Assembly (NCBI GenBank): GCA_964016885.1
Contig: OZ024741.1
Span: forward strand, 308,326,001-308,390,000
From: Eledone cirrhosa
Taxonomy: Eukaryota
Direction: 5' to 3'
DNA length: 64,000 nucleotides
Part shown: positions 12,520 through 24,783 of the stretch, piece after piece
Numbering within the stretch: the first letter of the stretch is position 1
How the letters are laid out: each line of letters starts with the position of its first letter
Made by a program: the position numbers and the translations under genes
The notes under the pieces: model-generated
Databases searched by the model: none
What the model saw: only the letters and a program-made list of their open reading frames with translations
What the model was told of the DNA's origin: nothing

Positions 12520-12991
12520 TTCGTGGTTTCAACCAAAGAGTATGGAAAAGATGTGTGGCTTATGTATTGACGAACGAATAACTATTCTAAAGAGATTACG
12601 CAAAAGTGATTGCCTAAACACGAGAAATGAATTTTTCACACGTTGTCCACACGTCGCCAAACACCTATTGCATAACTACAGGGCTCCGGGCTGCTTCTTT
12701 GTAATTTTATTTTTCAACTAAAAACTTTTCGGACTTTCGCAGTTATCTCCCTTACACCTCTCGCACGCATTCTAGTATTGCCTGTGTGAAGTGACCGGGT
12801 TTCTGCGCATGCGCGTTCGTACGGTTGTCCTACCTGCTCCTATAACCATATCCCATTCCGAGCTGAGGATCCGCTAAGGTGAAACAATTGTTCTCGGTAT
12901 GGTGAACTAACTGTTGTGTAACCACTTCTACCTAACTCGTCCCATGGACTGAGTGCTCTACCACTACGGATATTACCTTCCAGTGTTCCAC

Positions 12992-13544: not shown

Positions 13545-13580
13545 TCCTAACGTTTCGGACGTTAGTCTTTCATCAGAAGA
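13545..13580 (-). ncRNA. Minimal type I hammerhead ribozyme in a pLTR fragment (13481-13620)
   Basis: Minus strand TCTT-CTGATGA-aaGAC(taac)GTCc-GAAACGT-T-AGGA. Confidence 0.75.
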
Positions 13581-15836: not shown

Positions 15837-15886
<50 letters not shown>

Positions 15887-15911
15887 GTCCTAATAACTTA
15901 ATTTAGTTATT

Positions 15912-15982
15912 ATTGCACCGACGTGAGGTATATGATTTTTAATGCAATGAAATATCTATGATCGTCGGCAAATCACTGATGA
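15912..15982 (+). ncRNA. Permuted hammerhead-like motif, copy B
   Basis: ATTGCA-CCGACG-tg-AGGTAT-A-TGATTT-ttaa-TGCAAT-GAA-ATATCT-atgat-CGTCGG-c-AAATCA-CTGATGA, inside an insert of ~160 bp between (TA)n tracts. Confidence 0.6.
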
Positions 15983-16040
15983 GGGACTCATTTTATTACA
16001 TGTTATCCATGTGCAACCTGCAGTATTCTTCTCCCCATTT

Positions 16041-16102
<62 letters not shown>

Positions 16103-16292
16103 TCCTGATGATTTCTTTTGAATGAAACAGTTCTAGTCCTATAGAACCCTCTAGAACCCATTTCTATATTAAACATGATGTTTACACTCTACTAATATAT
16201 TGAGTACTTTACTAACTGTGGTTTGTAAGGTTTCGATTTAACGCGGGACATATATATATCGGGATTTTAGCGAATATTTCATGAAACCTTGT

Positions 16293-23113: not shown

Positions 23114-23149
23114 TCTTCTGATGAAGGACTAGCGTCCGAAACGTTAAGA
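23114..23149 (+). ncRNA. Minimal type I hammerhead ribozyme in a pLTR fragment (23068-23229)
   Basis: TCTT-CTGATGA-a-GGAC(tagc)GTCC-GAAACGT-T-AAGA. All stems are intact. Confidence 0.85.
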
Positions 23150-23926: not shown

Positions 23927-24045
23927 CCTACCTATAGTTGCTCGCCCATTACTCGGTTTGTTGTTGGTTTTTTCGGTGTTTTGTTACTGTTTCTCTTTTC
24001 TTCCCCTTTGCTTCCTTCCCTCCTTCTTCCGTTTTCCCAATAACT

Positions 24046-24112
24046 TATCCAGGCGAGGTATATTGTCTTTAAAGCGTAGAAATATCCGAGACCCCCATTA
24101 GACAACTGATGA
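24046..24112 (+). ncRNA. Permuted hammerhead-like motif, copy C
   Basis: GGTAT-A-TTGTCT-ttaaagcgta-GAA-ATATC-...-AGACAA-CTGATGA, inside an insert between (TA)n tracts. Confidence 0.55.
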
Positions 24113-24783
24113 GGAACCGCCCCCCCCCCTCTTGCTTTCTTCGTATTCCCACTCCATTTTAAGTTACCTTAAATAGCAACTACACAGCCATTTCTATTCT
24201 CCATATATATATATAAAATAGCATACTCAGGCCACAACAAAGCCATTAAAAGAGAAGGATGGACAGACAAAATGACTTTAGATAGGGTCGAACATCGCTA
24301 CCCGGCAGCTGTCCTCCGAACGACCGGTTTCAATCCTATTTTTTTAAACGCTGCAATGTACAGCGGCGCCTGCGTGGCGATCAGAGGGGATGGCCACCAA
24401 TCGGAGCTAATAAATATTGGTATGTGACACATGCTGCGACACGTTTTCTGCCTTCATCGACTTTCCCTTCCTGTTCAAATTGCTGGCCTTGTGCCTATAG
24501 TAAAAAACCAATTATTTGAATATGTGGTCATACAATGTGTATTATAAAATATATTACGTTCTGCTGCAAAACTATTCTGTCTTGTCATTGCATTTTGTTT
24601 TTGGTTCGAATTACTTTTACATGGTTTTCGTGTGAGCTTAGTATTGTCTTCCTTTGTGGCGGGCTCTGGTACTCTAAAGTGAACGAACTTGGATCTTGTT
24701 TTTAATGCTGACAGATCATGGTGATATTCTGTAGACTTCTGATTATGAAGGGATGTCAGTATTTTCCAGCGTCACAAGTGCTT

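Follow-up and report, generated by a model that had tools for sequence, protein, structure and literature searches.

A stretch of 64,000 nucleotides (nt) of the Eledone cirrhosa genome (assembly GCA_964016885.1, contig OZ024741.1, positions 308,326,001 to 308,390,000 of the forward strand), hereafter the window, contains at 15883..16045 a repeat copy, copy B, whose crossing helices are the stems of a hammerhead ribozyme with its blocks in the non-circular order S-G-C: the cleavage site (A15932), GAAA (15949) and CUGAUGA (15976). The hammerhead core is complete, with CUGAUGA at 15976-15982, GAAA at 15949-15952 and UH at 15931-15932. The motif is likely a self-cutting RNA, with the cut predicted between A15932 and 15933. 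A search of the 3.0-Gb genome for the S-G-C pattern, a motif of about 100 bases, gave 14,183 matches, compared with 1 in a reversed control.

Crossing helices of copy B and their conservation

Four core helices cross one another in copy B. Helix z, which stands for stem II, pairs ATTGCA (15912-15917) with TGCAAT (15943-15948), and helix a pairs CCGACG (15918-15923) with CGTCGG (15963-15968). Stem III consists of 5 base pairs (bp) between GGUAU (15927-15931) and the block G strand AUAUC (15952-15956), and stem I pairs TGATTT (15933-15938) with AAATCA (15970-15975); these features, and those below, are on the forward strand unless noted. All the pairings that the original prediction had claimed for copy B were found, in the crossing order z-a-b-z'-a'-b' and within 71 nt (15912-15982) including CTGATGA. 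That prediction had described two 6-bp helices, CCGACG/CGTCGG and AGGTAT/ATATCT; both are present, and the second is shortened to 5 bp because conservation is lacking for the pair A15926-U15957 (among 79 cores, its partner position reads A 29, C 24, T 23 and G 3). Two helices were missing from its list: W, whose 5' strand at 15887-15891 (GTCC/T) pairs with 15983-15987 just after CUGAUGA, and hairpin H (15892..15911), which forms a side arm of the junction at stem II's base.

Block S (15927..15932) carries the 5' strand of stem III, with U16.1 at 15931 and A15932 as H17. It is followed by the 5' strand of stem I and its linker (15933..15942), in which a 4-nt TTAA connects stems I and II at their distal ends, and by block G (15943..15956), which holds z', G12-A13-A14 (15949-15951), A15.1 (15952) and the 3' strand of stem III. 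The 3' part (15963..15987) comprises a', a 1-nt linker, the 3' strand of stem I, CUGAUGA (15976-15982) and W'. We evaluated the chance level of this arrangement by shuffling 15883-16045 300 times with dinucleotides preserved. When G-U pairs were allowed, 91 of the 300 shuffles contained three 6-bp helices that cross, so the bare pattern is common; a crossing triple restricted to Watson-Crick pairs appeared in 0, and the full four-helix set in 1.

From the genome, 98 distinct copies and 79 distinct 70-nt cores were extracted, with truncated and rearranged copies included and none dropped for poor pairing. U16.1, TTAA, GAAA and CUGAnGA were fixed by the search pattern, and their invariance is therefore no evidence; H17, which the pattern left free, is A, C or U in 77 of the 79 cores. 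The four helices were paired in 86.2% of cells across the 79 cores, compared with 69.3% after shuffling and 31-45% in slid registers. Stems I and III, which flank the core in register, were paired in 95.4% and 94.4% of cells, with changes on both sides in 5 of 6 and 4 of 5 pairs, respectively. The corresponding values were 83.1% and 6 of 6 pairs for helix a, and 70.9% and 4 of 5 counted pairs for z. The original prediction had named conservation in other genomic copies as its test, and these copies conserve the helices and covary in them. At least 40 genome copies are identical to 15890-16010 over 121 nt (40 scored of 823 candidates).

Other identities were considered from the sequence. Readings as a hepatitis delta virus (HDV)-like ribozyme, a small nucleolar RNA or a selenocysteine insertion sequence element were dropped because the covariation fits the hammerhead register. 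The S-G-C order and the crossing stems place the motif outside the canonical three-way junctions of types I-III. A canonical type II hammerhead was rejected, as the strand after CUGAUGA pairs with the strand before GAAA by at most 1 bp.

The strand preceding GAAA pairs and covaries with the upstream strand of z, and the bases following CUGAUGA pair with the upstream strand of W. Hairpin H sits between W and z, resulting in a four-way junction atop the core, or a three-way junction in the old family G, in which H is absent. The stem sequence of H varies between subfamilies with its pairing retained. In subfamilies C, D, E and G, the base that follows CUGAnGA can form one bp with the base that precedes GAAA. 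These pairings suggest that the base of stem II gives way to a helical junction, with an upstream segment as the stem's 5' strand; this would split block C.

A second copy in the window, copy A (24031..24116), is a member of an older subfamily that lacks about 16 nt, corresponding to the 3' strand of H, z and most of the 5' strand of a, and is probably dead. Family G (loci L145-L174 and L324-L353) is old and decayed, with inter-copy identity of about 70-85%, and has kept the kink-turn (k-turn) sequence described below. Further subfamilies were seen among the genome matches, in which the a' side is 1 nt longer and the sequences of a and stem I differ.

Carrier element and autonomous relatives

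The element at 15883..16045 is a 5'-truncated copy of a 516-nt unit lying in (TA)n, with the whole motif and the fixed 3' tail kept. Its subfamily, B, is built of seamless head-to-tail 516-nt units, up to 8 of them in locus L096, and the longest frame seen in the unit has 151 low-complexity codons. We surveyed the carrier in 30 loci, 26 of them distinct. A constant 3' end at (TA)n/(CA)n is shared by 29 of the 30, and the 5' ends are variable; tandem units occur in 11 of the 26 distinct loci, and an inverted 5' piece in 3 of the 30. These features point to a mobile element resembling retrozymes. In its relevant passages, a preprint lists insertion into (TA)n, 5' truncation, tandems and inverted 5' pieces for Naiads as hallmarks of Penelope-like elements (PLEs), and the carrier would fit the retrozyme model (as outlined in PMC7761336), in which RNA is cleaved, circularised and reverse-transcribed in a rolling manner.

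According to the available passages of PMC7761336 and of a 2026 preprint (10.64898/2026.07.22.740005), animal retrozymes without long terminal repeats (non-LTR retrozymes) share with this carrier tandem one-hammerhead units, the lack of LTRs, dispersal and a link to PLEs. They have type I hammerheads in units of 150-300 nt, whereas here the hammerhead is knotted and the units are about 510-750 nt. The 2026 preprint, in the part describing its search, covered type I hammerheads only.

Canonical-order type I motifs from at least four other (TA)n-inserted families also occur in the window, at 12858-12897, 23114-23148 and 16101-16150 on the forward strand and at 13576 and 29388 on the reverse strand. 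Some are minimal with a palindromic stem III (the PLE dimer type), and none reaches the Rfam gathering score. The canonical family at 23118 reads CUGAUGA-A-GGAC...GUCC-GAAA, and its helix sequence is identical to W of the knotted form. This identity is possibly a trace of the origin of the permuted form, or chance.

Naiads are PLEs that, in the sections of Craig et al. 2021 (PMC8557442) that bear on this point, were reported without canonical hammerheads and with unexplained 'HHR_core/half_core' flags. Their consensus file comprises 54 families, of which fragments were read by eye. The split S-G-C fold was recognised in this way in 10 consensi (Chem-3, Amil, Aacu, Anas, Movir-2, Plae, EuTe, Obim, Ovul and Esco). 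In Esco the z helix is weak, and in Bfor the fold is tentative. At the 3' ends of seven nematode Naiad families, the order CSG was seen by eye in the part of File S5 of PMC8557442 that covers them. Several of the consensus fragments gave nothing recognisable by eye, and the bivalve families among them end in a different motif. The k-turn is present in the two Octopus families, and the coral and EuTe forms are long-armed without it, again in the fragments read by eye.

With the Naiads, as they appear in these portions of PMC8557442, the carrier shares the (TA)n target, 5' truncation, partial tandems and inverted 5' pieces. The Octopus consensi in the fragments show the same W-H-z-a-k-turn-S-G-C fold with a near-identical loop of H. 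The core of family G resembles the Octopus Naiad motif. Unlike Naiads, the window element has no Naiad-type open reading frame (ORF). A search of the genome for the short Octopus Naiad motif gave 0 matches.

The motif was also found in a long interspersed nuclear element (LINE) of the REL type, where it lies just after the ORF in 23 of 30 loci of the E. cirrhosa genome. This LINE is presumably HERO-like; Pfam gave RVT_1 only, with zf-RVT below threshold. The query for these loci was one match from a pattern scan of metagenomes, which covered 9 of 64 parts. Two of the 118 pattern matches examined in the scan fit the structure, both after a C-terminus of a REL-type LINE, and the rest look like chance. 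One of the two is on the metagenome contig of locus L180 (1690-1795, forward strand), where z, a, III and I are fully paired with different sequence; locus L256 is the other contig. Two REL-type LINE families (L294-L323 and L354-L357) carry the knotted hammerhead directly after the ORF, and in L354 a 611-nt 3' piece precedes a 3.6-kb unit, a partial tandem that is pseudo-LTR-like.

Candidates for the element that mobilises the carrier were sought among 46 loci with GIY-YIG domains. The long PLE ORFs among those listed have a C-terminal GIY-YIG, and the cores near them are mostly of canonical order; at least three of the 46 loci hold an S-G-C copy, far from the ORF. The genome also contains intact ORFs of canonical PLEs. 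Long open PLE frames with a reverse transcriptase (RT) domain as well as a GIY-YIG at the C-terminus are found in L129 (4809-7622, reverse strand, 938 codons) and in L131 (1775-5062, forward strand, 1096 codons), and these two are candidates for an active mobiliser. Family G extends only about 400 nt upstream, and tblastn gave only canonical-PLE-like RT fragments. The element between two copies in L091/L092 was considered as an autonomous partner and rejected, as it is a nested PLE fragment on the opposite strand. Taken over these families, the module likely derives from Naiad 3' untranslated regions (UTRs) and is shared with the REL-type LINE.

Closing of the fold and rival explanations

The original prediction had described full intramolecular pairing as possibly topologically strained. 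The crossing of the helices is real; the supposed strain neglects a conserved k-turn sequence between stem III and helix a. The loop there matches a standard k-turn, with a 3-nt bulge, GA, and an opposite NGA. In copy B the predicted non-bulged strand is 15924..15926 (U3n G2n A1n) and the bulged strand 15957..15962 (the bulge UAU, then G1b A2b U3b), with helix a as the non-canonical helix. Of the 14,183 genome matches, 13,624 (96%) have the GA of the bulged strand at this register, and among 89 copies that had been collected without regard to the GA pairs, 73 contain the two of them. The version in the REL-type LINE has an extra A on the non-bulged strand. At 3b.3n the window copy has U.U, and other subfamilies have C.U, C.C, U.G or A.A/A.G. 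The U.U of the window is presumably of the box C/D type.

By the folding rules given in the corresponding passages of PMC4382518, a k-turn folds in ions when 3b is C or 3n is G, neither of which holds for U.U. Standard k-turns (Kt-7, U4 and box C/D, as described in parts of PMC5061560 and PMC4382518) have in common with this loop the 3-nt bulge, the tandem G.A/A.G pairs and the canonical and non-canonical helices. The present one differs in lying inside a hammerhead, whose stem III is its canonical helix, and the kink itself is predicted from the sequence. No natural hammerhead with a k-turn was found in the open-access literature searched. By a crude triangle estimate, a kink of about 50 degrees would bring the arm ends to about 19 Å, compared with 17 Å for stem I, whereas the unkinked ends would be about 39 Å apart. 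Because the kinked distance matches stem I, the k-turn would remove the strain in cis, and a monomer is plausible.

We consider cis folding of the RNA by way of the k-turn, with a cut after A15932, to be probable. In this scheme, the nested rod of a and III and hairpin H would fold first; the rod, or most of it, is in the minimum free energy (MFE) structure of 8 of 9 representatives. Bending at the k-turn would then fold the rod back and bring its terminal loop to the two flanks, where pairing would give stem I and z, i.e., stem II. W, H, z and the G12-A9 end of the core would then form the four-way junction, with the 5' strand of stem II supplied from upstream. Cleavage of tandem or read-through transcripts would release unit-length monomers, probably circularised, which could be reverse-transcribed by an autonomous PLE priming on (TA)n.

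The same helices could also assemble between two molecules. In a strand-swapped dimer, the terminal loop of the rod (the 5' strand of stem I and z') would dock into the flanks of a second copy to give two cores, and neighbouring tandem units, which are common, could be the partners. Since stem I and z are the only helices that cross the nested fold, their pairing in trans is possible, and the gap between the 39-Å unkinked arm and the 17-Å stem I favours such an exchange. The Naiads without a k-turn also speak for it: by eye, in the fragments of their consensi, III of EuTe has 10 bp and is nearly continuous with a, and the coral form has 12 bp in III and 10 bp in a. By a hand estimate from the same fragments, closure in cis is out of reach for these long-armed forms. 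According to the part of PMC7761336 that deals with them, minimal hammerheads of PLEs may cleave in dimeric form. However, 96% of matches retain the k-turn sequence, and the arm lengths are fixed at values that close the triangle in cis, whereas a symmetric dimer would tolerate any arm length. Single-ribozyme SGC constructs were also cleaved co-transcriptionally in the passages of PMC10085705 that describe them, which do not address dimers. We regard the dimer as less likely than the cis fold, yet as a serious rival, above all in the Naiads without a k-turn.

It is improbable, in our judgement, that the motif is a non-catalytic, hammerhead-derived 3' structure that recruits the RT or an L7Ae-family protein, with the core bases serving a structural role. 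Such a role would agree with the insertions, which always keep the sequence downstream of the predicted cut to the fixed 3' end, with the abnormal stem II, and with the 3b.3n U.U of the window, which fits neither ion-folding rule in those passages of PMC4382518. Against this, H17 is A, C or U in all but two of the cores although the search did not fix it, and conservation of the core bases extends over several phyla and over two retroelement classes that are unrelated, partly as read by eye. The retrozyme model, in its outline in PMC7761336, explains why both flanks are kept, through a circular or tandem template. Still less credible is a switch in which a hairpin sequesters the core and regulates cleavage, as the original prediction had suggested. 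The hairpin it described, ATGAG (15979-15983) with CTCAT (15987-15991), exists, overlaps the CUGAUGA core and W', and is in the MFE structure of a short window construct. It is intact in 23 of 98 distinct copies, confined to the window lineage B and its closest subfamily B2, with no covariation seen, and is absent from the REL-type LINE. Because the other subfamilies lack it, the switch is unsupported.

Several observations weigh against cis folding and cleavage of the motif, or against its proposed origin. Changes on both sides were seen in 19 of 22 pairs of the 79 cores, a count also reached by 28 of 500 shuffles, and the copies are related, with the covariation reflecting about 7-9 lineages, not 79 independent events. 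The helices are individually weak (stem I -2.3 and stem III -0.7 kcal/mol), and the MFE structure of subfamily D differs. Stem II proper has at most 1 bp, unlike the tested hammerheads in the cited literature. W is invariant in subfamilies B-F, without covariation within them, and ragged or ambiguous in the old subfamily A; its support was for this reason drawn from other lineages, namely the REL-type LINE, where it has 12 bp with different sequence, and the metagenome contig L180, where it has 5 bp. Rfam at gathering thresholds gave 0 matches in the window, and it missed the canonical minimal hammerheads there as well. No Naiad ORF (N-terminal GIY-YIG plus RT) was found in the genome searches, beside the motif or elsewhere. 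Cephalopod Naiads are described as long inactive in the relevant section of PMC8557442, whereas subfamily B copies are identical. Nevertheless, we favour cis folding through the k-turn.

Relation to published SGC and CSG hammerheads

Hammerheads of the orders SGC and CSG were reported by Eckert et al. 2023 (PMC10085705), and in the parts of that paper considered here they cleave in vitro at the site predicted in the present motif. SGC (HRIMA-1) came from metatranscriptome-type data and CSG from two metagenomic sequences, with none from genomes of known organisms; one unsupported GCS candidate was in a bacterium. CUGAnGA and the adjacent stem strands were assumed there to be inseparable.

The present motif shares with these types, as they are described in the same parts, the non-circular order, the full core, the short linker between stems I and II and an extra helix tying the other sides. 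It poses the same geometric puzzle, in which an extra helix joins stem III, and helix a would correspond to the 'I' helix between stems I and II in type SGC. The linker is the 4-nt TTAA here and typically 3 nt in type SGC. Unlike type SGC, block C is split, with the 5' strand of stem II lying upstream behind the W/H junction, and both arm linkers are closed, with the k-turn sequence; the word 'kink' has 0 occurrences in the supplement of PMC10085705. The present motif also comes from an animal genome, with more than 14,000 copies. Judged by its sequence, it is a variant of the SGC/CSG hammerheads and not a member of type SGC, because its block C is not intact. In the open-access full text searched, we found no report of the knotted fold in animals, Naiads or REL-type LINEs.

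These comparisons raise the possibility, which we put forward tentatively and hold to be somewhat short of probable, of a hidden and widespread class of knotted hammerheads in animal retrotransposons, invisible to canonical descriptors. The split S-G-C form, with a junction at stem II, would occur in REL-type LINEs and in the Naiads of cephalopods, cnidarians, one crustacean and one acanthocephalan, and nematode Naiads would carry the CSG form. The module would have moved between unrelated classes of elements, and the k-turn would make cleavage dependent on an L7Ae-family protein in the U.U lineages.

If the motif cleaves, non-circularly permuted hammerheads would no longer be a metatranscriptome rarity but would rank with the commonest ribozyme forms of an animal genome. 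This would correct the view in the literature that Naiads proliferate without hammerheads and account for the orphan cores flagged in them. Hammerheads would also be added to the 3' UTRs of REL-type LINEs, and the assumption that block C is indivisible would be broken. A 105-nt transcript would then provide a natural k-turn ribozyme for testing protein-gated cleavage and monomer versus dimer function.
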